A DNA stretch of 26,764 nucleotides from Alphaproteobacteria bacterium. Its GTDB lineage: Bacteria > Pseudomonadota > Alphaproteobacteria > Rickettsiales > UBA1997. Position 1 is the stretch's first letter; every line of letters begins with the position of its first letter. The notes below the pieces were generated by a model. The model did no database searches, had not been told where the DNA came from, and was given only the letters and a program-made list of their open reading frames with translations. The stretch is from positions 1-26,764 of the forward strand of contig VGDJ01000001.1 in NCBI GenBank assembly GCA_016869775.1. Reading direction: 5' to 3'. Made by a program: the position numbers and the translations under genes. Below, in pieces: positions 308 to 11,898 of this stretch.

Positions 308-2896
308 TTAGCTAAAAAAATATTTGATTTCACTTTTCAAATCGTAATAAATTTTTTTCATCTCTTCAAACCAATTATTACTCAAATCGCCTTCTTTAAT
401 TTTAGTTTCAATCATTTTACAAAAATAATATAATCTATCAGCGCCAATATTAACTGCCGAACCTTTTACAGAGTGAATGTATGATAGAAGTATTTTTTTA
501 TCGTTAATTTCTATTGCTGAATGAATTTTATCCATAAAATCGTCTATATCTCTAATAAACATTTGCAAAATAGCGCTCTGCTTTTCGCGATCAAAGTGAT
601 TTCCTAAAATTAATTGATTAAGATTAACAATCTCACTTGTTTCACTTCTTACTACTTTAGTGTAGTCTACCTTATTTATTTTGACGGGTTTTTTAATCAA
701 ATAGATGCTAATTATTTTAATAAGTAATTCTGGATTTGAACCTTTGATAAAATAATCAGTTAGACGGCAATTAAAATAATTACGAATATCATTTAAAGAA
801 CCATTTCCGGTTAGAGCAATAATTGGAATTTCATCATGATAACCAATTTTGTAAGAAGCTTCAATTTCTCTAACTTTAAGACTACATTCATCTCCACCAA
901 CGTAAGGCATACTTATATCGGTTAATATAATGTCAAAATAAGAATTACCTTCATTATCAAGACTTTGTTTGTAAATATTAATCATCTCGATACCGTCGCT
1001 TGCTTCAACAACAAATGCACCACACAATTCTAGATGCCTCTTAATTAAAACTCGGTTAATTGGCTGATCATCTGCCACAAGAATTTTTTTATTAATGAGT
1101 ATTTTACTATATTCATCTTTATCGCCGACATATTTTATATCATCATCGAAATCAACAAACCACTTGGTTATGCTTCGATAAAATATTCTTTCAAGAGATG
1201 ATTTACTTAAATAACCGCTAAAATTATTCAAAGCATTCTCAGTCAAAATTAATTTGTTAAATGTATCTTTATCAAGGGAAGTTAATGCAATAATTGGAAC
1301 CTCTTGATTAAATTCACGAATTTTTTTACTGGCTTGGATACCATCAATTTCAGGCATTTGAATATCCATTAAAACTAAATCGTAACCATTGTTATTGATA
1401 AATTTATCAATCGCTTCTTGACCTCCCCTAGCAACATCGCACTTAATTTTTGATAAATTCTTGTTAATTCTTGCCTGACCGGTAAGTAGATTTATAAGTT
1501 GATCATCAACCAAAAGAATTTTTTTCTCACCGCGCTCAATTTGAACTCTTGCAATATCTTCTTGCGCTAAATGAGGAAATAGTAATGAAAATTTTGTCCA
1601 TTTACCAAATTCAGATTCACAAATAATATCTCCACCAAACATCAACATATTTCGTTTACAAAATGCTAATCCTAGACCAGTTCCATCAATTTTACCTGAG
1701 GTATAAAAATCATCAAATAATCGAGAAATAGAATTTGCAGGAATTCCTGGGCCATTATCTAGGATATAAACTGAGTTATAATCAACTCCATCAAAAAGCC
1801 TTTTTTCGATACCTATGTTGATGATAAAATCATCTGATTTATTGTAATAAAGAGCATTTTTTAATAAATTAAAAATGATGTAATTAAACCTTTCAGGCAC
1901 AATTTTTAAAAATATACTGCTATCATTACTGTAGTGATATTTAATTTTTTTCTTCTCATCTTCATTTTTATAAACATATTTTTCTAAAATCTCTGGCAAA
2001 ATATTATCTGGATTTAAATATTTTATTTCATGCGGATATATTTGTTTTTCACTTAAATCATTAAGAATAATATTAATTATGTTATTGGCGTTATTAATTG
2101 ATTCACTGATTTTCTGAGTCAGATTTTGGATGTTTGCTGTACCCAATAGGTTTTGATTTATCGAACCAGCGCATGGCTCTATTTGGTTATTTTTTTGTAT
2201 TTTTGTAGCCGTGTCTTTTATTTCCAATCCAATTAGATTTATAGCATTAAGGGGGTTTTTAAGCTCATGAGCAATTGAGCCAGCAAGAGATTTAAATATT
2301 TTTGCTCTTTCTTGCGATGCTAGACCTTTTGCATTACTATAACTAAAAATAAGTCCTGCCATTATCGCAAAAATAAAAGTAAAAACATATAGCAGAAAAT
2401 CCAATTGGGCATTGTAGGAAAATACTAAGGGATCAAAAATCGCTCCCCCGAATAAAAAGCTATGACAAAACAATGATAATAAAATTCCAACAAGCAAATC
2501 AAAAGTAAACATTAACCAATGTGGAACAAACATCATTAATAAAAATATCATGATTACCTCCCACAAAAACCAAGTTTTCACAAAAGAATTATTTAGGGCC
2601 GTTAAGGTGATTAAAAAAGGGAGATTATATATAAGCATGAAGTGCCAATAAAAGGAAAAAAATGGCTTTATTTTTTTTGGCCATTTATTTTTCGTGAGAA
2701 GAATTAAACAAATAATTCCACCCCAAACTTTCAAAGTTATGCTGTCCCAAGGCATTTTAAATAAATAGATGTGCAACACAGCAAACAATTGGTGTCCAAA
2801 CGATCCAATTACTGCTGCTGACCTTAAATTGAAGTCATTAATGGATGTACCTTTATTAAAAGCTTCCCTGATGTATTGCTTTAGATTAAATTTCAA
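308..2896 (-). CDS. Hybrid sensor histidine kinase, CqsS/LqsS-like membrane sensor + HisKA + HATPase + REC + REC + Hpt (receptor 1)
   Basis: About 190-aa hydrophobic N-terminus; H-box SIAHELKNPL; N-box NLLKNALYY; G-boxes DNGPGI and GTGLGLAFC; REC1 LLVDD..LMDIQMP; REC2 LVADD..LTDISMP; Hpt IHSVKGSAVNIGA. TTG start. The CqsS likeness rests on recalled motifs (YNLPF, W..E-IMIFL, KNALYY, CESEFGKWTKF). Confidence 0.9.
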   Translation of the reverse strand: MKFNLKQYIREAFNKGTSINDFNLRSAAVIGSFGHQLFAVLHIYLFKMPWDSITLKVWGGIICLILLTKNKWPKKIKPFFSFYWHFMLIYNLPFLITLTALNNSFVKTWFLWEVIMIFLLMMFVPHWLMFTFDLLVGILLSLFCHSFLFGGAIFDPLVFSYNAQLDFLLYVFTFIFAIMAGLIFSYSNAKGLASQERAKIFKSLAGSIAHELKNPLNAINLIGLEIKDTATKIQKNNQIEPCAGSINQNLLGTANIQNLTQKISESINNANNIINIILNDLSEKQIYPHEIKYLNPDNILPEILEKYVYKNEDEKKKIKYHYSNDSSIFLKIVPERFNYIIFNLLKNALYYNKSDDFIINIGIEKRLFDGVDYNSVYILDNGPGIPANSISRLFDDFYTSGKIDGTGLGLAFCKRNMLMFGGDIICESEFGKWTKFSLLFPHLAQEDIARVQIERGEKKILLVDDQLINLLTGQARINKNLSKIKCDVARGGQEAIDKFINNNGYDLVLMDIQMPEIDGIQASKKIREFNQEVPIIALTSLDKDTFNKLILTENALNNFSGYLSKSSLERIFYRSITKWFVDFDDDIKYVGDKDEYSKILINKKILVADDQPINRVLIKRHLELCGAFVVEASDGIEMINIYKQSLDNEGNSYFDIILTDISMPYVGGDECSLKVREIEASYKIGYHDEIPIIALTGNGSLNDIRNYFNCRLTDYFIKGSNPELLIKIISIYLIKKPVKINKVDYTKVVRSETSEIVNLNQLILGNHFDREKQSAILQMFIRDIDDFMDKIHSAIEINDKKILLSYIHSVKGSAVNIGADRLYYFCKMIETKIKEGDLSNNWFEEMKKIYYDLKSEIKYFFS

Positions 2897-2940
2897 ATTT
2901 AAATTTATTTATTTTTAGATAATTTTTTTATTAATACAGG

Positions 2941-2955
2941 TTGTGGTAACCGCAA
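2941..2955. promoter_or_regulatory. Quasi-palindrome in the divergent promoter region, possible regulator binding site
   Basis: TTGTGGTAACCGCAA has 6 of 7 positions paired around a central A. It is a GC-rich spot in a very AT-rich 370-bp intergenic region, 45-60 bp upstream of receptor 1. Confidence 0.25.
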
Positions 2956-3273
2956 ATTCGTTTTACTTTTTTTTTATTTATAGTCTAAACATCGTTGATA
3001 AAAATATTTTGAGTTCATGACAAATCAATATCAACTTAAATTAATTTTAAAAATGAATAACAAAAAAAATATATTAAATTTTACAACTAGTTTATCTATC
3101 ATTCATTTCAATAATTCATTTTATAACAAATTTTGTAGATTAAAATGATCATCTCATATTTTCTTATTAAGAAATATATTTTTTATGCTTACAAACTGAC
3201 AATCTTATTTATATTTTTAATTAAGTTTTGTAGTAAAATAAAAAAGTAATAACTGAATTATTATTTGTTAAAC

Positions 3274-4461
3274 ATGACAGAAAAAAATCTTGAATTAAAA
3301 CACTATATTTCACCGGATGAAATAAGAGATAGCTTACCCAAAAGTGGCGGTATGGGTTTTTTATTTCATTCTACAGATTGGAAAACCCTTTCATTCGCTT
3401 ATAATAATGTTAAAAATAGAAGTCCATCTTTTGAAATGGAGCTCTGGAACACCCCACCATTTATAGCTTCCAAAATGTATGTTGGTAATGAATTTATTGG
3501 CGTTAACATAGCAATGCCCGTTCCAATCGATATGTGGATAGGAAGTTCTGGTGGCCTCAGAGAGTTTCGTAAAAAACAATTTTTTCCTGCACTTGAACTT
3601 GCTGCAAAATGTAATTTAAAAATGGTAGCAATTGGCGCATCCACTCCATATGTATGCAATTACGGCAAGCTTCCGAGACCGTTAGCAAATCCATTTATAA
3701 CAACTGGCCACGCTGCAACTGTCGCAACATTAAAGAAATGGGCAGTTTATGCCGCAAAAAAAACAAATTGTGATTACAAAAAGATAAAGTTAGCAATATT
3801 TGGGGCCGCAGGGAGACTTGGAAAAGCAGTTAGCCAATTTATTGCATACTCTGAAGCTCCGCAAGAAATAATCCTAGTTGATCTATACAACAAGATGGCC
3901 TTACTAAAAACACAAGCTCAAGAGATGAAAAAAATAACCAAACGCAATGATTTAAAGATTTCCACTTATTGTTATGAGGCTTCAACTTTAATGCCAAGAT
4001 TTGATGGTGCAATTTTAGTAAGTAATAACAGCGTTCCTTATCTGACAAAAAATGACTTAAAAAAAGCAAAATTTTGGATTGATGATTCTCACCCCCGGGC
4101 TGCAAGCCTTGAGGCCGAACTCGGATCAAGAAATGATACTCTTTATATCGAATGTTATGCAAAAGGACCAGAAGGTTTTAATACAAACTTTCCTTTTAGA
4201 CTTCCGACAATTCAGGATTGTTATACTTGCTGTGCAGAAGGCTACGTTTCTTGGAAGGAAGGGATTAATGAAGATTTTGTTACTGGTATACCAGATGTTA
4301 AAAAGGTTGATCTCGTCGATAAATTGCTTGATAAGTATAATTTTCAACTTGGGCCATTCTCTGGAAAAAATGGCGATCTAATTCTTAAAATTCCAATACA
4401 GAAAAAAATTTTACAACCTACCCAAATCGAGGTCGAAGCTTTCGGCGATATGATCGACTAA
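3274..4461 (+). CDS. Acyl-ACP reductase-like NAD(P)-dependent oxidoreductase (COG5322 / cyanobacterial AAR-like)
   Basis: GFLFH N-terminal motif; VAIGAST; ITTGHAAT (AAR TTGNTHT); Rossmann IFGAAGRLGKAV (AAR VVGATGDIGSAV); DDSHPR; YTCCAEG matches the AAR catalytic-Cys motif FACFAE. ATG at 3274 preferred to the TTG at 3265. Confidence 0.7.
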   Translation: MTEKNLELKHYISPDEIRDSLPKSGGMGFLFHSTDWKTLSFAYNNVKNRSPSFEMELWNTPPFIASKMYVGNEFIGVNIAMPVPIDMWIGSSGGLREFRKKQFFPALELAAKCNLKMVAIGASTPYVCNYGKLPRPLANPFITTGHAATVATLKKWAVYAAKKTNCDYKKIKLAIFGAAGRLGKAVSQFIAYSEAPQEIILVDLYNKMALLKTQAQEMKKITKRNDLKISTYCYEASTLMPRFDGAILVSNNSVPYLTKNDLKKAKFWIDDSHPRAASLEAELGSRNDTLYIECYAKGPEGFNTNFPFRLPTIQDCYTCCAEGYVSWKEGINEDFVTGIPDVKKVDLVDKLLDKYNFQLGPFSGKNGDLILKIPIQKKILQPTQIEVEAFGDMID

Positions 4462-5463
4462 CTTTTCATTTACTTTTCCACTTACTGCTTTAAGTGCTTC
4501 TTCTCTGGTCATAAAACCCTCTCTAACATCTCTAGCAAGTGGAATAATATAAGGATGAAGATTGTATTTCTTCTGATGAATTGCAATACCAAGAGAATTT
4601 AGCTGACAATTAGTTGAACAAGAATCTGTGCTTTTTGTTCTTCGCCAATCTAGCTCTCTTTCAATCGTTTCATAAACTTCATGCTCATTGTACTTGTTAT
4701 ATTCAAAAAAAGGAACGAGATTCATTCTAGCAATTTTTAATTTTTTCCACAAAGAAATATCCAGAGCATTTATTGCATCTTTTTTTCCGAGAGTTTTTAA
4801 AAGATTTATCATTGGCGCAATCATATGTTTGTCAACATCCACTAAACCATTGAATTTTGATTTAAGATCATATTTCTTTTGCCTTAATTGACCTGGTGTG
4901 GTCCCAACCACAACATTTGGAATATTTTTTTCGGAGGCTAATTTAAAGGAATGTAAAGCAATTTGAGTAAAACACGGCCAACATGCGTGACCGATCATAA
5001 ACGCTAATTCTTTTGATCTTTTATGAATTCCAGAGTTTTGAAAACTTGCATTAAAAATTGTTTTATTGAGATTCCACGAAGGTTTGTAAACAATGTGATC
5101 AACATTAATTTTTTTCAAAACCCTATCAATATTTGCATAGGTTTCAGGTGGTATAAAGTGGTTATCAAAGGTGAAGGCCAGAACTCTTAATTTATAATGG
5201 TTGGCTAGCTTGTATAGCATATAAGTACTGTCTTTGCCACCGCTATATAGAACCATACAATCATAAGGATGCTTGCTACCAACTTTTAGTGTTGAGATCA
5301 TTTTCTTTTCAAGAGCTTGATAGTCTCGATCGAGATATTTTTTTTCTTCGTCATATTCATGACAAAAATTACAAACACCATTGCTATCGAATTTAATATT
5401 TGGAACCTGAGATGTTAAGATACACCTCGTACAAGTTTGAATTTTTTCTGATGAATTTACCAT
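4411..5463 (-). CDS. PP-loop adenine-nucleotide alpha-hydrolase (AANH), 'N-acetyl sugar amidotransferase' (WbuX-like) family
   Basis: N-terminal CTRC..CNFC metal site; PP-loop YDCMVLYSGGKDSTY; FTFDN; central CWPC; C-terminal DSCSTNCQLN and VREGFMTREEAL. Confidence 0.8.
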   Translation of the reverse strand: MVNSSEKIQTCTRCILTSQVPNIKFDSNGVCNFCHEYDEEKKYLDRDYQALEKKMISTLKVGSKHPYDCMVLYSGGKDSTYMLYKLANHYKLRVLAFTFDNHFIPPETYANIDRVLKKINVDHIVYKPSWNLNKTIFNASFQNSGIHKRSKELAFMIGHACWPCFTQIALHSFKLASEKNIPNVVVGTTPGQLRQKKYDLKSKFNGLVDVDKHMIAPMINLLKTLGKKDAINALDISLWKKLKIARMNLVPFFEYNKYNEHEVYETIERELDWRRTKSTDSCSTNCQLNSLGIAIHQKKYNLHPYIIPLARDVREGFMTREEALKAVSGKVNEKLVDHIAESFDLDLGRL

Positions 5464-5646
5464 AAATTAATTGGGAATTGATAAGTTTTATTAAAATTTG
5501 AACACCGTTAAAATAATGTATTTTAAAATGAGTTATAGAATAATATTTTTTTTAATATGTATTATTAGTTGTTGTTTATTTTTGGAGCAATTTATAACAA
5601 ATTTATTAATATAAAATTTGCTTCACAAGATCTTAAAAATCCTTTT

Positions 5647-5672
5647 AAAAAAATTAATCAAAAAAATTAATC
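5647..5672. repeat. 13-bp tandem duplication
   Basis: AAAAAAATTAATC twice, head to tail. Confidence 0.7.
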
Positions 5673-5736
5673 AAATGCTAATGAAAAAAATAAATAGTAA
5701 AATTTTTAAAAACCCCCGCGTTTTATTTCCTTTTTT

Positions 5737-5922
5737 ATGGCGCTCATAATGGCTTTCATTATGTCTGGAGTCTTGACTTTTATCAATGTGGGCATGATCG
5801 AAGGCTTCTTATTTAGATGGCTTAAATCATTTTTTTATGGATTGCTGATTGCTTTTCCAACCGCTTTTTTTGTTGCCCCCTTGGTGAATAAAATTGTTCA
5901 AAAAATTATCTCCAAAACTTAA
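5737..5922 (+). CDS. DUF2798-family small membrane protein; true start may be ATG 5681 in another frame
   Basis: MALIMAFIMSGVLTFINVG..FLFRWLKSF..AFPTAFFVAPLV resembles DUF2798. ATG 5681 reads MKKINSKIFKNPRVLFPF and would join this ORF if the T6 run at 5731-5736 had one more T. Confidence 0.65.
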   Translation: MALIMAFIMSGVLTFINVGMIEGFLFRWLKSFFYGLLIAFPTAFFVAPLVNKIVQKIISKT

Positions 5923-5925
5923 CTA

Positions 5926-5949
5926 AATCTAAAATTTAATCTAAAATTT
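5926..5949. repeat. 12-bp tandem duplication
   Basis: AATCTAAAATTT twice, between the DUF2798 gene and regB. Confidence 0.7.
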
Positions 5950-5978
5950 TCATAATTTTTTAAAAAATTTAATAACCA

Positions 5979-7232
5979 ATGATGATTAGCTTTTCAACAA
6001 TAAGTGTTAATAAAGGAAATCTAAAACTCCTCATAATTCTTCGAATAATTGCCATTTTTTCACAAATTGCGACTATTGGATTTGTATATTTTTTATTAAA
6101 AATAACTTTACCAATATTACCAATGATTTTAGCGATTGGATTTTTAGCGATCGTTAATATCCGCGCCTATTTTAAATTCAAAAAAAATATCATTACTGAT
6201 AAAGGTTTATTTTTGGAATTATTGTTTGATGTATGTATTTTTGCCCTACAAATTTATTTGAGCGGAGGAGCATCAAATCCATTTATCTCACTTTTTTTAA
6301 TTCAGATAATAATAGCGATAATCTTGCTAAGACCTTTATTTTATTGGCTTATTGCAATAATATCTGTAATTTTTTATGTTCTTTTGGGTAAATTTTATTA
6401 TCGTAATATTGACCTTCAAACACATAACCATCATCAAGGTGATTTTAGTTTACACCTTCAGGGCATGCTTTTTAGCTATCTAATCTTGGCAATTTTGTTA
6501 ATAATTTTTATTGGAAAAATTATTCGCAATATTCAACTTGAACAACAAAAAATTTATACCCTCCAACAACAATCACTTCAAGAAAAACATCTTGTAGAAA
6601 TGGGTTTATTTGCTACAAATTCAGCCCATAATTTAAGCACTCCCTTATCCACAATATTGTTGTCAATTAATCATTTAAAAGAGAATTTAAATTATAAAAA
6701 ATTTGACGATGATTTTAAATTAATCGAAAAACAAATCTTTCGGTGTAAAAATATTATCTCGGATATTTTGAATTATTCAGGCGCCCAGAGACTTGAAAAC
6801 TCAGAATCCTTAAATCTTCGTCAATCTTCAATTCAATTAATAGAAAATTGGCATAGTCATTCGCTTGTTAAAAATTTGCACATTAATTATTTTGGCGATT
6901 CTAAAATCAATTTTTCATTCGATAAAACCTTAGCAAATGCAATTTATAATATACTTGATAACTCTTTTGAGTCATACATAAATGAGATTATAATAACAAT
7001 TTACAACGATCAAAAAAATATAATTTTTAGTATTATTGATGATGGTAAGGGTTTTGAAAAACGAATTTTAAAAAAACTTGGGCAAAAAAATATTTCTACT
7101 AAAAATAGTAATGGTTTGGGAATTTATTTAACCATCAATACTTTAGAAAAAATTGGCGGAAATTTTATTGCTCTAAACCTTAAAGATAAAGGCTCTATGG
7201 CTAAAATAATTATTCCAATTAACCATGATTGA
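5979..7232 (+). CDS. regB: RegB/PrrB/RoxS-family redox-sensing histidine kinase
   Basis: Multi-TM N-terminus with quinone-binding SGGASNPF motif; FSLHLQGM; H-box variant AHNLSTPL; redox Cys QIFRCK; DDGKGF and NGLGIYL ATPase boxes. Confidence 0.85.
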   Translation: MMISFSTISVNKGNLKLLIILRIIAIFSQIATIGFVYFLLKITLPILPMILAIGFLAIVNIRAYFKFKKNIITDKGLFLELLFDVCIFALQIYLSGGASNPFISLFLIQIIIAIILLRPLFYWLIAIISVIFYVLLGKFYYRNIDLQTHNHHQGDFSLHLQGMLFSYLILAILLIIFIGKIIRNIQLEQQKIYTLQQQSLQEKHLVEMGLFATNSAHNLSTPLSTILLSINHLKENLNYKKFDDDFKLIEKQIFRCKNIISDILNYSGAQRLENSESLNLRQSSIQLIENWHSHSLVKNLHINYFGDSKINFSFDKTLANAIYNILDNSFESYINEIIITIYNDQKNIIFSIIDDGKGFEKRILKKLGQKNISTKNSNGLGIYLTINTLEKIGGNFIALNLKDKGSMAKIIIPINHD

Positions 7233-7773
7233 CAACAATAAAATTTTAATAGTTGAAGATGATTTGGATTTGGCAAATATTTTAAAAAAATCTTTCCAAA
7301 AAATTAATTTTGAGGTTGAGATAATCGACAATTTTAATCAATGCGAAAAAATTCTAAATAATTTTAATCCAAATTTTGCTTTGGTTGATTTAAAAATTAA
7401 TGGGCAATCGGGTTTAGAGGTTATTAAATTGATCAGTAGCTATAATTCATCAACTAAAATTGTAGTTTTGACGGGTTTTGCAAGTATAACAACTACTATA
7501 TCTGCCATAAAATCTGGGGCATGTTATTATTTAGCAAAACCAGCTACTTTTGAGATGATAACTAGTGCATTTGAAATTTATTGCGACTTGCCGAAAAATA
7601 ATTATACAAAAGCAATTTTTGGTAAAAAAACATCAATTAAAAATATCGAATGGGAACACATCAACACCATTTTAGAAGAAAATAATTTTAATATTTCTAA
7701 AACTGCCAAATCATTAAATATGCATCGCAGGACATTAGTTCGTAAATTACAAAAAAGTGTAATAAAAAATTAA
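7225..7773 (+). CDS. regA: RegA/PrrA/RoxR-family response regulator
   Basis: REC (LIVEDD, LVDLK, LTGFASITT, YLAKP) plus Fis-type HTH EWEHI..NISKTAKSLNMHRRTL. Overlaps the regB stop. Confidence 0.9.
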   Translation: MIDNNKILIVEDDLDLANILKKSFQKINFEVEIIDNFNQCEKILNNFNPNFALVDLKINGQSGLEVIKLISSYNSSTKIVVLTGFASITTTISAIKSGACYYLAKPATFEMITSAFEIYCDLPKNNYTKAIFGKKTSIKNIEWEHINTILEENNFNISKTAKSLNMHRRTLVRKLQKSVIKN

Positions 7774-7789
7774 TATTCTAGAAAGTATT

Positions 7790-10459
7790 TTAATTTGTTG
7801 ATGATTTTAAATGATTTTTTAACTCTTCGATCAATTCAAGATATAGAGATTCTATTTGAAAAACAGCTTGATTGACCATTTTTTCATCGCTTTTAAGAGC
7901 TAAATCTAATTTTTTAATAAAATTTGCAAATTTTTCAGCGCCGATATTTGCAAGAATTCCTTTAAGAGAGTGAACATATGGGTTGAGCATTTTAATGTTA
8001 CCCTCTTCAGTATGCTTTTTTATTTTGCCAATTATTTCTTGACTGTCTTCAATAAATAACTCGATTATTTTATTTTTTTCTTCAAATGAAAAATTGTTTA
8101 TAAAATTGGCATTAAAAACCAATTCTTCATTGGAGTTTTGTTTTTCAGAATGTTGATCTAAATCTATCGATTCTGCATATATACTTGGGTCGATTTTAAT
8201 GAAGAAATTCGCTATAATTTTTATTAGATTATCGAAATTATTGCCTTTAATAAAATAATCATCGATTCCAGCTCTAAAAAAACTTACAATCATTTCATTA
8301 GATCCGTCCCCACTAAGAGCAATAATTGGGATTCTATTTCCATAGTAAATTTTATTTTTTTCTTCAATTTTCCTAATTTCCAATGAAGCATCCTCTCCCG
8401 ATACATAATTCATATTTATATCGGTAATTATTGCATCAAAACTCGAACAACCTTTTTCATCGATGCTTTTATTATAAAGATTAATAACCTCACTACCGTT
8501 TCTTGCTTCGACCACAATAATTCCGTATTTTTCGAGAATTTTTCTAGTTATTACCCGATTTAAATCTTGATCATCAGCTAAAATAATTTTTTTACCCACC
8601 AAAATTGAAATGATTTTATTTTTATCAATTCCAAGATATAAAAAATTATCACTATAGTCAGTTATATTTTTAGCAATTGTTCTGATCAAATGATTGTTGG
8701 GCGCCACTTTGCTGATATAATCAACAAAATTATTTCTCGCTTCTCTTTTATCAAGTTCGCTGATAAAAGTTTCGTAAGATAGTGATGTGGCGGCAATAAT
8801 TGGAACGTTATTTCTAATTCTTTTAATTCTATGACTAGCCTCAATGCCATCAATATGAGGCATTTGAATGTCCATCAGAACTAGGTTATATCGATAAGAT
8901 TCAGACATTAAAATTGCTTCCTTGCCACTATTAGCGATATCACATGATATTCTGGGCATTAATTTCTCAATTTTAGTTTTTAAAGCGATTAGGTTTATTT
9001 TATGATCATCAACTAGTAATATTTTTTTTAATTTACTAATCTCTTGGGCCCTTTGAAGCTCTTCATTGGTCGGATAACTGAATAACAATGAAAATTTTGT
9101 CCAGCCCTGCCCGCCATAACCATATTCAGATTCACACATGATATCACCGCCAAGGATTTTCATGTTCTTTTTACAAAAAGCTAGACCAAGTCCAGTTCCA
9201 CCTTTTTTACTAAAAGTTGTAAAATCTTTAAATAATTTAGTAATTTTTGAAGCCTGAATTCCAGGTCCGTTATCGGTAAAACTGATAATATTATATACCC
9301 TATTATTAATAAATTGCTGATCAAAACTAATCTTGATAGTCATATTTGGAAATTGATGCACATAGTAAAGAGCATTTTTGATGATATTATTGAAGATAAA
9401 ATAAAATCTTTGTTTGGTTATTTTAAAAAACAGATTTTCTATTTTAGTATCTTTGGGGGCTTCAAATATTATTCTATTTGCATATGAGGATTGAGGATAA
9501 TGTCTTTGAATTAATTCAATTATTTCAGTTGTATTTGCATAATAATATTCAGTCTCATCGATATTTTTTTCTCGTAAATCACTTAATACCAGATCAATAA
9601 TATCATTGGCATCTTTGGATGATTTTGATATTGAGTCGACAAATTCAATTAATGAATTTCTTTCACTATCGGCCAAATTGGAGTTCTCAACAATTTTTTT
9701 GACCAAATCGTCGTTATAAAGATTTTTTTTAACTAATATAATCTCGTTTTCACTTAAGGTAGTTCTTTGAACCTGATTAATCAGGTTTTCGATTTGAACA
9801 ATAACCGCATTAATACTATTCAAAGGATTTCTAAGTTCGTGGGCAATTGAACCAGCTAATGATCGAAAAATAGTTGCTTTTCTTTTTTCAAAATCACCTT
9901 GTTTAGCTTTTTCTAAAAATAAAGTACCACAAATAAGTGCCAGTGGTAAAAGTGTAATAGCATACCGAAGTTCATGAATTGGAATCGAAATAGTGTTAAA
10001 GCTATTAATCAAAAAAAAATAATAACCAAGATAAACGCCCAGTGATAGAACCACAGAAATTACCACAAAATTTGTAATAAAAAGAATAACTAGAAAAATC
10101 ATAATAGTTTCAGCCACTATCCACATAATAGAAACATCATTCATTAGCATGATATAAGTATAAGTTATCGGCAAAATCCACATAACCCACAAATACCAAT
10201 AAATCATGAATAGCGGTTTAAATTTTTGGTAATTTCGTTCAGTTTTATATAAAAAAAGTATAACCAACAATGAGCACAAACTGGAGCTAAATCTAAAAAA
10301 AACGCTATCGAACTTTTCGTTCAGCAAATAGACATTTACCGCCCAATAAAATGGGTGACCAACAAAAAATATGATTGAGCCAAAGAAAATGTTGTATCTA
10401 CTCCTCTCATAATCTTCATTGAGAAATTGTACAACTCTTTGGAATAGCTGATTGAACAT
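7790..10459 (-). CDS. Hybrid sensor histidine kinase, CqsS/LqsS-like sensor + HisKA + HATPase + REC + REC + Hpt (receptor 2, paralogue of receptor 1)
   Basis: IMLMNDVSIMW closely matches recalled Vibrio CqsS MMLMNDWSTIW; VGHPFYW resembles CqsS LGFPAYY; SIAHELRNPL; IKNALYY; DNGPGI; GTGLGLAFC; LMDIQMP; ITDINM; Hpt VHSLKGILANIGA. Confidence 0.9.
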   Translation of the reverse strand: MFNQLFQRVVQFLNEDYERSRYNIFFGSIIFFVGHPFYWAVNVYLLNEKFDSVFFRFSSSLCSLLVILFLYKTERNYQKFKPLFMIYWYLWVMWILPITYTYIMLMNDVSIMWIVAETIMIFLVILFITNFVVISVVLSLGVYLGYYFFLINSFNTISIPIHELRYAITLLPLALICGTLFLEKAKQGDFEKRKATIFRSLAGSIAHELRNPLNSINAVIVQIENLINQVQRTTLSENEIILVKKNLYNDDLVKKIVENSNLADSERNSLIEFVDSISKSSKDANDIIDLVLSDLREKNIDETEYYYANTTEIIELIQRHYPQSSYANRIIFEAPKDTKIENLFFKITKQRFYFIFNNIIKNALYYVHQFPNMTIKISFDQQFINNRVYNIISFTDNGPGIQASKITKLFKDFTTFSKKGGTGLGLAFCKKNMKILGGDIMCESEYGYGGQGWTKFSLLFSYPTNEELQRAQEISKLKKILLVDDHKINLIALKTKIEKLMPRISCDIANSGKEAILMSESYRYNLVLMDIQMPHIDGIEASHRIKRIRNNVPIIAATSLSYETFISELDKREARNNFVDYISKVAPNNHLIRTIAKNITDYSDNFLYLGIDKNKIISILVGKKIILADDQDLNRVITRKILEKYGIIVVEARNGSEVINLYNKSIDEKGCSSFDAIITDINMNYVSGEDASLEIRKIEEKNKIYYGNRIPIIALSGDGSNEMIVSFFRAGIDDYFIKGNNFDNLIKIIANFFIKIDPSIYAESIDLDQHSEKQNSNEELVFNANFINNFSFEEKNKIIELFIEDSQEIIGKIKKHTEEGNIKMLNPYVHSLKGILANIGAEKFANFIKKLDLALKSDEKMVNQAVFQIESLYLELIEELKNHLKSSTN

Positions 10460-10575
10460 TTAGGGATGATTTTAATGAGTTTTTATAATCATAAAAATTT
10501 GGATTATAAATTACTACCAACAAATATTGCCGATTTATTCAACTCTGTTGAAAATATAATCTAAAAAATACCAAT

Positions 10576-10613
10576 AAAAAAGGTTCCTCAACTTAAATTG
10601 AAGAACCTTTTTT
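10576..10613 (-). terminator. Rho-independent terminator downstream of fadL
   Basis: AAAAAAGGTTC(10576-10586) / GAACCTTTTTT(10603-10613) inverted repeat with inner TCAA/TTGA pairing. On the minus-strand RNA the single mismatch is a G-U pair, followed by a U6 tail, 25-60 bp past the fadL stop. Confidence 0.8.
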
Positions 10614-10638
10614 AGTAAGCTAATAAAATATGATTTTT

Positions 10639-11898
10639 CTAAAACTGCTTTTTAATTGCTAATGAAATCACATCAACCGAAGTATGATATTGTCCACTTA
10701 AAGTACCTTCAATGTTGTTACTACCCATGCTCTTAATATCAATTCTGCCGGTTTTATAAAATTGATGAACATATGCCAAATCTAATTCTAAATCATTGTC
10801 AAATTTATGATTTAGACCAGCACTTAGCCAATATTTATTTGAAGCTGGCACTCTCGGCTCACGATTTCTATTGTTAATAGCTTCTTTTTCGTAAGCCAAA
10901 CCAGCTCTGAGTATATTTTTATTATTTAAGCTATAATTCGCACCGATCGAGTAAAGAATTGAATCGTTCCAATTGAAGTTAGATGAAGAGCTAAACAATG
11001 GATTGTCGTAGGCATTAAGGCTTAATTTTTCTAATTTTGACCATCTAGTCCAAATTGAATCGGCAACCAATTGAAAGTCTTTAGAAAAATTATGCGATAA
11101 GCCTATTGATAAAGACTCTGGGGTAGAAGTTTTAGACTTAAAGCGTGAGGAGGCGACATTTTGCAATTCTGTGCTGCCCTTAATATTATGAACAATCTTT
11201 GAACGATAACCCACGCCAATTTTTGTGTCTTGATTTATTTTGTATGTGGCACCTAAGTTAAAACCATAGCCCATATCACTTCCTGAAACTTCTCCGATTT
11301 GATCAGCATAAGTAGTTGGATCTTTTGAAAGAGTAGAAAGTTTAACTTCATAACGTTGCGCAACTAACCCAGCACCAACCGATAAATCATCGGTAATTTT
11401 GTAGGCCAATGATGGATTAAAATTTAGAGTTTTAATTGAACTGTTTAAAGCACGATATTTACCGGTCCAATCGGCTCGATATGATGTTTTTAAACCAAAA
11501 GGTGAAGTAAGGGCAAAATTTAAAGACAACTTATTAGAGATTGGTGAAGAAATATAAAAAGCTGGAATTAAGTTTTCACTACCAATATTGCTTGGATCAC
11601 GACCATTTGTTGAACCAAAAGCATTTGAACCAGTCATGTTATCAGGGTCAATTTTTAGATTTAAATAGCTCATCGAGAGTATAGCTTCATTTTTCTTGGC
11701 TCCAGCTGTTATGGATGGATTAAAAAAACTATCACTAACATCGTGAGAACCAGTGGTTGAGCCTGCATAACTATTGCCAAGACCTGAAGTTGAATAAATA
11801 TAAGTAGAATATCCTCCAGCAAAAGCGCTAGAATAAATTGATGATGAGAGCGCAATCGAAAGCACGGCTTTTTTAAAGTGTTTTGTATAATTTTTCAT
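10639..11898 (-). CDS. fadL: OmpP1/FadL-family outer-membrane channel for hydrophobic molecules
   Basis: Signal peptide ending SSAFA; hatch motif STSGLGNSYAG; FFNPS (NPA variant); FGLKTSY; LNFNPSLAYKI; REPRVP; C-terminal Phe. Confidence 0.88.
   Translation of the reverse strand: MKNYTKHFKKAVLSIALSSSIYSSAFAGGYSTYIYSTSGLGNSYAGSTTGSHDVSDSFFNPSITAGAKKNEAILSMSYLNLKIDPDNMTGSNAFGSTNGRDPSNIGSENLIPAFYISSPISNKLSLNFALTSPFGLKTSYRADWTGKYRALNSSIKTLNFNPSLAYKITDDLSVGAGLVAQRYEVKLSTLSKDPTTYADQIGEVSGSDMGYGFNLGATYKINQDTKIGVGYRSKIVHNIKGSTELQNVASSRFKSKTSTPESLSIGLSHNFSKDFQLVADSIWTRWSKLEKLSLNAYDNPLFSSSSNFNWNDSILYSIGANYSLNNKNILRAGLAYEKEAINNRNREPRVPASNKYWLSAGLNHKFDNDLELDLAYVHQFYKTGRIDIKSMGSNNIEGTLSGQYHTSVDVISLAIKKQF

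Follow-up and report, generated by a model that had tools for sequence, protein, structure and literature searches.

A CqsS-like receptor kinase linked to an AAR/TAD-fold enzyme in lake Rickettsiales and other proteobacteria points to an undescribed lipid-signal system

What does a quorum-sensing receptor listen to when the gene beside it codes for an enzyme of a different family? To our knowledge, bacterial autoinducers belong to few chemical classes, each tied to one synthase family, and we know of no AAR/TAD-fold thioester-offloading enzyme that acts as the synthase of a bacterial signal. The question is raised by a stretch of 26,764 nucleotides (here called the window; it is the whole of contig VGDJ01000001.1, our C1) from a Rickettsiales metagenome-assembled genome (MAG; GCA_016869775.1; 1.285 Mb in 211 contigs, 98% complete, ~31% G+C). 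Here, the gene of a hybrid histidine kinase with a CqsS-type sensor (R1) is divergent from the gene of an AAR/TAD-fold enzyme, which we call the reductase for short, with a PP-loop enzyme gene, DUF2798, regB, regA, a second CqsS-like kinase (R2) and fadL beyond it. A first-pass annotation of the sequence had interpreted these eight genes as a lipid-signal locus in which the two enzymes make a fatty-acyl-derived signal that both receptors read. What stands of this interpretation is a conserved cassette of R1 with the two enzymes, which does not rely on CqsA, the alpha-hydroxyketone autoinducer synthase; FadL and DUF2798-regB-regA fall outside it, and so, probably, does R2. In the following, loci, contigs and genomes carry our own labels (L, C and G).

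Linkage of the kinase to the reductase and its independence from CqsA

The reductase gene always comes with a CqsS-like kinase gene. An alignment of the family, scanned against 185,579 species with a single genome for each, gave 104 relatives of the reductase, with 80 loci kept, and in all 80, which span three proteobacterial classes, a CqsS-like kinase directly adjoins the reductase (the kinase of L037 is fragmented). The carriers are Rickettsiales MAGs, Burkholderiaceae, Porticoccaceae and Ca. Thiosymbion, and genome and metagenome loci with the pair together number about 90. In 72 of the 80 loci the kinase is downstream on the same strand at a median gap of ~50 nt, with stop and start codons overlapping in Porticoccaceae, and the remaining eight, all of Rickettsiales type, are divergent as in the window (median gap, ~357 nt). 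In Paraburkholderia sp. BL9I2N2 the two genes make up a single open reading frame (ORF) of 1282 aa (L091:7905-11753), either a natural fusion or the result of a stop codon lost in assembly. The PP-loop enzyme is found in every Rickettsiales-type locus (10/10 genome loci and at least 4 metagenome loci). A lack of conserved enzyme-kinase linkage in other genomes would have spoken against the first-pass annotation; for R1, the reverse was found. No other neighbour is conserved across distant taxa in the 8-kb flanks of the reductase-kinase pair. Trees of the reductases and of the kinases give the same three groups (Rickettsiales, gamma and beta), and we found no paper on this pairing in the literature searched.

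After clustering at 50%, the kinase-linked reductases come down to one representative among 1.84 billion, and just 14 representatives reach an E value of 1e-30. Within the order Rickettsiales, the reductase is rare, being present in 2 of 301 sampled genomes and absent from three genomes of the same genus, and homologues with 55-61% identity are found in Paraburkholderia, Cupriavidus, Ralstonia, Oxalobacteraceae, Porticoccaceae/SAR92 and Ca. Thiosymbion. On metagenome contigs, the trio of receptor, reductase and PP-loop genes sits amid recombinase, resolvase and defence genes that vary by locus; as the same trio recurs within unlike flanks rich in mobile elements, the cassette appears to move as a unit, and its surroundings suggest mobile or defence-island DNA. 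As for single cases, serine recombinase and resolvase genes flank the trio in L015 and L017, and in L017 the trio is separated from fadL by a set of SMODS and HNH genes (CBASS-like).

Among 32 cassette-bearing genomes, CqsA scores over the curated cut-off in nine (2/9 Rickettsiales-type MAGs, 6/17 Burkholderiales and 1/6 gammaproteobacteria). In the other 23, several of which are isolates with megabase contigs, the best score against the CqsA model NF005526 is ≤204 bits, the level of the HemA/Kbl/BioF paralogues. It follows that the cassette is not dependent on CqsA.

The genome of the window does have CqsA, although the first-pass annotation had noted its absence. This absence is correct for contig C1, which has no match to PF00155 or NF005526, and does not extend to the genome: a genome scan with PF00155, followed by NCBIfam classification (the other matches being HemA, Kbl and BioF), found a cqsA orthologue split over two contig ends (C91:4416-5012, L014, and C138:2430-3128, within L013, C138:323-3128). 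The ends of C91 and C138 overlap by ~149 nt with a 1-nt indel in an A-run, from which we conclude that this is one cqsA gene broken by assembly. Being split in this way, both fragments fall under the 428-bit whole-protein cut-off of NF005526, with 281.4 bits for C91 (model positions 13-215) and 353.3 bits for C138 (positions 171-399). The closest solved relative of the product is V. cholerae CqsA (E 3e-70, versus 2e-24 for serine palmitoyltransferase), and its SLAKTF motif, which carries the pyridoxal phosphate (PLP) lysine, matches V. campbellii CqsA. A cqsA homologue elsewhere in the genome whose product activates the receptors had been named beforehand as the finding to look for against a new signal; a homologue is present, yet with an adjacent receptor of its own, a CqsS-like kinase of 699 aa (R3) that starts 7 nt downstream on C138. 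R3 keeps W33, R47, S103, F87 and F158 and has a Cys at 166, as V. cholerae CqsS does, and the R1 and R2 genes are not adjacent to cqsA or lqsA. Overall, the genome contains exactly three CqsS-like receptors and one each of reductase, PP-loop enzyme, cqsA and fadL. It is also the only one of the 301 sampled genomes of the order with CqsA, which makes an alpha-hydroxyketone system in Rickettsiales unusual in itself. The first-pass annotation had also seen no AONS-fold, luxI or luxM/ainS gene. The first of these holds for contig C1, given the lack of a PF00155 match; luxM/ainS was not searched, and the genome has no match to the LuxI family in a search that gave none in any control genome either and is therefore weak.

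Receptor pocket and enzyme families

The CqsS sensor has no model in Pfam or NCBIfam, and we therefore took residues 1-230 of V. campbellii CqsS as the reference (L136, a genuine cqsA-cqsS locus on the chromosome II record). The membrane domain of R2 matches it with an E value of 3e-13 (residues 8-230) and that of R1 with 1.6e-10 (residues 2-199). As the matches run along the membrane domain, they support homology of the whole sensor, and the label CqsS-like that both kinases had been given is sound. The sensor directly precedes the DHp H-box, with H190, E191 and P195 aligned across 38/38 kinases. Against a protein-cluster atlas, the R1 sensor found only generic membrane-domain clusters, with every score <0.9.

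The comparison with Vibrio CqsA/CqsS (which senses CAI-1) and Legionella LqsA/LqsS/LqsT (LAI-1) shows both likeness and difference. Homology extends over the full membrane domain of CqsS, and the H-box follows immediately on the last helix; a biosynthetic-type gene stands beside the receptor gene in a two-gene cassette, and there are several receptor paralogues per genome, as with LqsS and LqsT. In contrast to both systems, the partner in the window is an AAR/TAD-fold, putatively NAD(H)-using enzyme instead of a PLP-dependent AONS-fold acyltransferase. Unlike CqsS, the alpha and beta reductase-linked kinases carry one more receiver domain as well as an Hpt domain, and the pocket is altered; the window genome also differs in having a true CqsA-CqsS pair besides.

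In the 2026 cryo-EM study of V. harveyi CqsS, the head group of CAI-1 is hydrogen bonded by W33, R47 and S103, and its acyl tail is held by F26, Y29, L83, F86, F87, F158, F162 and F166 (PMC13729885). V. campbellii CqsS read from MDAIRK has the same residue numbering, and our alignment of the contact residues is less certain in TM4-TM6 than in TM1-TM2. The head-group triad W33/R47/S103 is kept in 8/8 CqsA-linked kinases, R3 and V. campbellii CqsS among them, and is lost in R1 (H/K/W) and R2 (N/R/A). In full, R1 has H26, F29, H33, K47, I87 and W103 where CqsS has F, Y, W, R, F and S, a set present in 11/11 Rickettsiales R1-type kinases; the reductase-linked beta and gamma kinases have W33/R47/T103 plus H26, C87, V158 and C162, and R2 has H26, N33, R47 and A103. 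In the representative sequences read, the residue after 103 is Glu in reductase-linked kinases and in R2 (Gln in the Porticoccaceae L079), Phe in V. campbellii CqsS and Tyr in R3. The triad is replaced exactly in the lineage that also holds the PP-loop gene, of which we found no homologue in five beta and gamma genomes carrying the cassette.

A tree of 38 kinases, built from the sensor plus kinase core, sets the reductase-linked receptors apart from the CqsA-linked ones. All eight CqsA-linked proteins, V. campbellii CqsS and R3 included, are on one side of a branch with an SH-aLRT support of 87, and on the other side are all the reductase-linked kinases, R2 and two kinases of one Rickettsiaceae MAG. 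The latter side consists of a Rickettsiales clade (support 99), with R1 among its reductase-linked members and R2 as a deep branch, and a beta/gamma clade (support 95).

The first-pass annotation had called the reductase AAR-like, and its fold agrees with this. The AlphaFold model (pLDDT 85.7) has the three-part AAR/TAD fold, and in Foldseek its best match is the TAD, a putative terminal amidation domain, of carmabin CarI (9E4S, 9E4X and 9E50; E 6e-20, TM score 0.65-0.70), followed by cyanobacterial AAR (6JZQ/6JZU; E 6e-15, TM score 0.65-0.78; 9e-16 for AAR in Swiss-Prot). A profile search of the PDB also ranks TAD (E 5e-15) before AAR (E 1e-6). Other fold relatives are the C-terminal domains of plant CER1/CER3 and the N-terminal domain of PigE, which, like AAR, act on fatty acyl thioesters. 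The protein is not a member of the AAR equivalog TIGR04058, against which it scores 22 bits for a cut-off of 449.7, with the Rossmann segment alone covered. Unlike AAR, it has no ADO partner, its cofactor signature is more NAD(H)-like and it is always paired with a kinase.

Across 26 diverse sequences of the reductase family, the motifs ITTGH, GAAGxxG (GAAGRLG in the window protein), DDSHP and DCYTC are invariant, ITTGH and DDS-P being shared with TAD. An Asp follows the second Rossmann strand, as in TAD, which suggests the use of NAD(H) rather than NADPH. Both C319 and C322 are invariant in these sequences, and C322 alone is kept in the distant homologues of L141 and L143; it lies where a near-linear Foldseek mapping places residue 294 of AAR, the position expected for AAR Cys294. 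C322 is the candidate equivalent of the catalytic Cys294 of AAR or Cys2238 of TAD. According to its description, TAD resembles AAR, is specific for NAD(H) and has a catalytic cysteine that a carrier-protein arm reaches, and it binds NAD(H) with micromolar affinity and without turnover in vitro. Its proposed role is the release of thioesters as primary amides, but neither this activity nor the nitrogen source could be shown. Some TAD clusters adjoin an NAD synthetase (PP-loop) gene, and one sequence cluster is made up of discrete proteins (bioRxiv 10.1101/2024.10.28.620694). Identity between the reductase and TAD is just 18-20%. Unlike TAD, a C-terminal domain of a nonribosomal peptide synthetase (NRPS) that has a peptidyl carrier protein as its partner, the reductase is a discrete ORF of 395 aa, with no NRPS, polyketide synthase or PP-binding (carrier-protein) gene in the window. 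It may belong to "cluster 4", the discrete proteins of the TAD study.

The second enzyme is closest to WbuX/WbpG/PseA, a family in which an amide carbonyl is converted to an amidine with ATP. It aligns to TIGR03573 (WbuX) over near its full length (E 8e-44), with the SGGKDS motif and the N-terminal four-cysteine motif CxxC..CxxC, and the one relative with a solved structure is an N-acetyl sugar amidotransferase (PDB 8WEX, E 2e-8). In contrast to that family, its score of 150.5 bits is under the cut-off of 203.2, and its subfamily (≥46% identity) adjoins AAR-like proteins and membrane kinases instead of sugar loci; the window contains neither glycan genes nor a HisH/HisF-type ammonia donor. The reductase and PP-loop genes are convergent, and their 3' ends overlap by 51 nt (positions 4411-4461). 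The same overlap is seen in L015 (8472-8522) and L017 (8476-8526).

Closer relatives of the PP-loop enzyme (48-59% identity) come from other phyla, one locus being from an Omnitrophota MAG. In 3/3 loci examined (L141:5068-9561, L142:3183-9515 and L143:2758-13035), the gene stands beside a distant AAR-like Rossmann protein (E 5e-16 in L143) and a membrane kinase of the HisKA_7TM type, and the loci also contain response-regulator genes. Ketosynthase and acyl carrier protein (ACP) genes are found in two of them (L142 and L143), and acyltransferase and FabA/ApeI-like dehydratase genes in L143. As a negative control from the metagenome scan, not a census, we used relatives at 30-34% identity: among the matches listed, nine long loci have neither an AAR-like nor a kinase neighbour and contain instead AMP-binding, NAD-synthase, GNAT, aminotransferase and radical-SAM genes. 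As the combination of AAR-like protein, PP-loop enzyme and membrane kinase is found in other phyla, the pairing is older and wider than its CqsS-type version, and these three loci look like a deeper version of it.

Possible function of the cassette

The reading that we favour, on which we are about evenly divided, is that R1 and the reductase, together with the PP-loop enzyme in this lineage, are a synthase-receptor cassette independent of CqsA, with a fatty-acyl-derived and probably nitrogen-bearing signal. We infer the substrate, the product and the role of the product as the ligand of R1, with the chemistry drawn from fold relatives only. A fatty acyl thioester (acyl-ACP or acyl-CoA) would be loaded onto the conserved cysteine of the reductase, probably C322, and released with NAD(H) as an aldehyde or, as proposed for TAD, as a primary amide. 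The PP-loop enzyme would then adenylate the carbonyl oxygen and add or rearrange nitrogen, giving a head group of the amidine or nitrile type. Such a hydrophobic product could partition into the membrane and bind the CqsS-type pocket of R1, whose head-group contacts would have been remodelled to match, and binding would switch the His-Asp-Asp-His relay. The chemistry suggested by the first-pass annotation, acyl-ACP to aldehyde followed by ATP-dependent amide or thioamide formation, is still plausible, and it gains from the fact that the closest solved homologue is a putative terminal amidation domain. The genome would run this cassette in parallel with the canonical CqsA-CqsS (R3) system, and R2 would be a related receptor without a synthase of its own.

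We hold a broader version more tentatively, as one that could well prove wrong. It proposes a second class of CqsS-type quorum sensing without CqsA, in which the synthase is an AAR/TAD-fold thioester-offloading enzyme and the product a fatty aldehyde or a primary fatty amide. In freshwater Rickettsiales, a PP-loop amidotransferase would convert this to an amidine- or nitrile-type head group, with the pocket remodelled. In the deeper version found across phyla, HisKA_7TM kinases would accompany both enzyme types, along with ketosynthase and ACP genes dedicated to them.

Several points weigh against the synthase-receptor reading. The 80 loci overstate independence, because most of the betaproteobacterial ones are close relatives, and represent perhaps 5 to 8 independent lineages. 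Gene adjacency fits equally well a kinase that regulates the enzyme or is regulated by it. The absence of CqsA in MAGs can be an assembly artefact, as here, where cqsA was split and each piece fell under the cut-off. The activity of TAD is itself unproven. The catalytic cysteine is probably C322, a placement by conservation and position only. Support from the kinase tree for a separate receptor subfamily is moderate, as the search behind it was quick, the branches are long and the composition is uneven. Last, the correlation between the PP-loop gene and the pocket change is suggestive, being a single evolutionary event and not a set of independent replicates.

The enzymes could instead be an output or signal-processing partner of the kinase. 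The kinase would then either sense an external lipid and control the expression of an enzyme that serves to modify, detoxify or inactivate it (quorum quenching or lipid stress), or monitor, as feedback, the level of a membrane or envelope lipid that the enzymes make. Sensor kinases often adjoin the genes under their control, the promoters of the window are laid out divergently, as would fit coregulation, and the recurrence of FadL nearby suggests uptake of an outside molecule. A context of lipid remodelling is also seen in the sister enzyme subfamilies, as in the nearest reductases without a linked kinase (L174:56-2313, L175 and L176) a fatty-acid desaturase gene (PF00487, E 6e-26) follows, with overlapping stop and start, a lipid context that also speaks for the synthase-receptor reading. 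However, a DNA-binding output is absent from the kinases, the pair has no conserved response-regulator neighbour, tight translational coupling and in-frame fusion are more typical of synthase-receptor or partner proteins, and the pocket residues change together with the enzyme content. We consider this explanation unlikely, if worth keeping in mind.

A role as a cytoplasmic regulator, in which the AAR/TAD-like protein binds the intracellular domain of the kinase and reports NAD(H) or acyl-thioester status, comparable to CqsA or to the H-NOX and NosP proteins that control kinases encoded next to them, seems to us doubtful. There is a precedent in CqsA, which forms a tight inhibitory complex with the intracellular domain of CqsS independently of catalysis (PMC13729885), and a physical complex would fit the 1:1 operon, the overlapping stop and start codons and the single ORF of L091, as well as the binding of NAD(H) by TAD with no turnover in vitro. 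A complex prediction with two copies of the R1 intracellular domain (residues 190-450) and the reductase had a score of 0.00, which speaks neither for nor against binding. Set against such a role are the invariant catalytic-type residues (the Cys of DCYTC, ITTGH and DDSHP) in the 26 sequences and the conserved membrane pocket that diverges in step with the enzymes, which implies that a membrane ligand matters. Binding is also compatible with the synthase-receptor reading, as CqsA is both synthase and binder.

That the receptors are orphans eavesdropping on alpha-hydroxyketones or other lipids of other species or of a host, with the enzymes as unrelated neighbours, we regard as improbable for R1, for which a linkage in all the genome loci and the metagenome loci, over three classes, is no chance adjacency; moreover, the CAI-1 head-group contacts are replaced in both R1 and R2. 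It is the best reading for R2 alone, whose orthologues occur in genomes without the two enzymes. Compared with CqsA and the reductase, CqsS-like kinases are common in the order: 33 of the 301 genomes have them, in up to 9 copies, so most of them are orphans. Among these, several Rickettsiales genomes (for example, G081, G118, G098, G234 and G261) have 5-9 CqsS-like paralogues of ~900 aa without CqsA or reductase, which makes for an extensive family of orphan receptors of the lipid type.

The enzymes might also tailor what CqsA makes, for example by reducing or aminating its diketone or enaminone intermediate, to give another variant of the signal for R1 to read. This would suit the presence of CqsA in this genome and the NADPH-dependent reduction that follows CqsA in the maturation of CAI-1 in Vibrio, but we reject it as the main role and find it scarcely credible, given the 23 of 32 cassette genomes without CqsA (best scores at paralogue level) and fold relatives that act on thioesters and not on free ketones.

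If the synthase-receptor reading is right, this would be the first physiological role for the orphan "discrete" TAD/AAR-like proteins, and the putative terminal amidation domain family would gain a simple model enzyme that stands alone and, possibly, the partner for nitrogen handling that it lacks. From soil Burkholderiaceae and marine Porticoccaceae to worm symbionts and lake Rickettsiales, a well-studied receptor family, CqsS/LqsS, is here in obligate linkage with enzymes of another, uncharacterised family. This offers a concrete, testable route to a new signal molecule, as many of the carriers are culturable and genetically tractable Paraburkholderia, P. xenovorans among them; P. graminis C4D1M (L058) and P. 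fungorum (L086) are examples without CqsA. It would also mean that a reduced-genome, probably host-associated member of the Rickettsiales can run two parallel lipid-signal circuits, comparable to Legionella Lqs.

Neighbouring genes and the rest of the window

An ORF listing and Pfam/NCBIfam scans returned all eight genes of the first-pass annotation with the same coordinates and strands (Table 1).

Table 1. Features of the R1-fadL region, in window coordinates.
Feature	Position	Strand	Remarks
R1, hybrid histidine kinase with CqsS-type membrane sensor	308-2896	-	HisKA-HATPase-REC-REC-Hpt
AT-rich intergenic region between the divergent R1 and reductase genes	2897-3273		Presumed site of both promoters
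AAR/TAD-fold enzyme ("reductase", COG5322 type), 395-398 aa	3265/3274-4461	+	Weak Rossmann and weak AAR family matches
PP-loop ATP-pyrophosphatase, WbuX/PseA superfamily	4411-5463	-	Closest to TIGR03573
DUF2798	5737-5922	+	
regB	5979-7232	+	
regA	7225-7773	+	
R2, hybrid kinase, paralogue of R1, CqsS-type sensor	7790-10459	-	Domain order as in R1
fadL, outer-membrane channel for hydrophobic molecules	10639-11898	-	PF03349

R2 is probably an orphan receptor with a weak link to the enzymes. Its orthologues (56% identity, 890 aa) are found in the same-genus genomes G116 and G266, both without reductase and CqsA, and for this reason the proposal that both receptors read the product is not supported for R2. 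The fadL gene, which is missing beside these orthologues, is in the window 179 nt upstream of R2 on the same strand, and its product covers positions 4-421 of the 421 in PF03349 (267.5 bits, cut-off 29.7). The fadL-R2 pair is also present in L032, and fadL adjoins R1-type kinases in L026 and L030 and lies nearby in L017. In no other locus is it found close to an R1-type or R2 gene, which gives ~4 of 12 distinct loci with such a link. With such sporadic linkage, we rejected FadL as a constant member of the cassette; it is a recurrent neighbour. DUF2798-regB-regA, which had been counted in the locus, was also rejected, as the otherwise identical cluster of L032 runs R1, reductase, PP-loop enzyme, R2 and fadL without it, which makes the three genes an insertion in the window.

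DNA near-identical to the window is found in many lake-water metagenomes, and the closest protein relatives of the MAG are labelled Rickettsiales or Rickettsiaceae MAGs. The remainder of the contig is housekeeping, with obg, adh_short (a short-chain dehydrogenase/reductase), lpxI, a polyprenyl synthetase, an eptA-like gene and an aconitase-family gene, among others. Two overlapping ORFs on the plus strand (23664-24131 and 24091-24972) both match the MFS transporter family and may be a frameshifted or split gene. At the end of the window, a plus-strand frame that runs off the contig (25888-26763) has a weak match to otubain (Peptidase_C65; E 1.8e-4, 21.5 bits versus a cut-off of 24.3). Finally, a protein of 243 aa (19577-20308, plus strand) matches the dual-specificity phosphatase family (DSPc) with 32.1 bits, just under the cut-off of 33.5; this is a eukaryote-like domain in a bacterium that is probably host associated.

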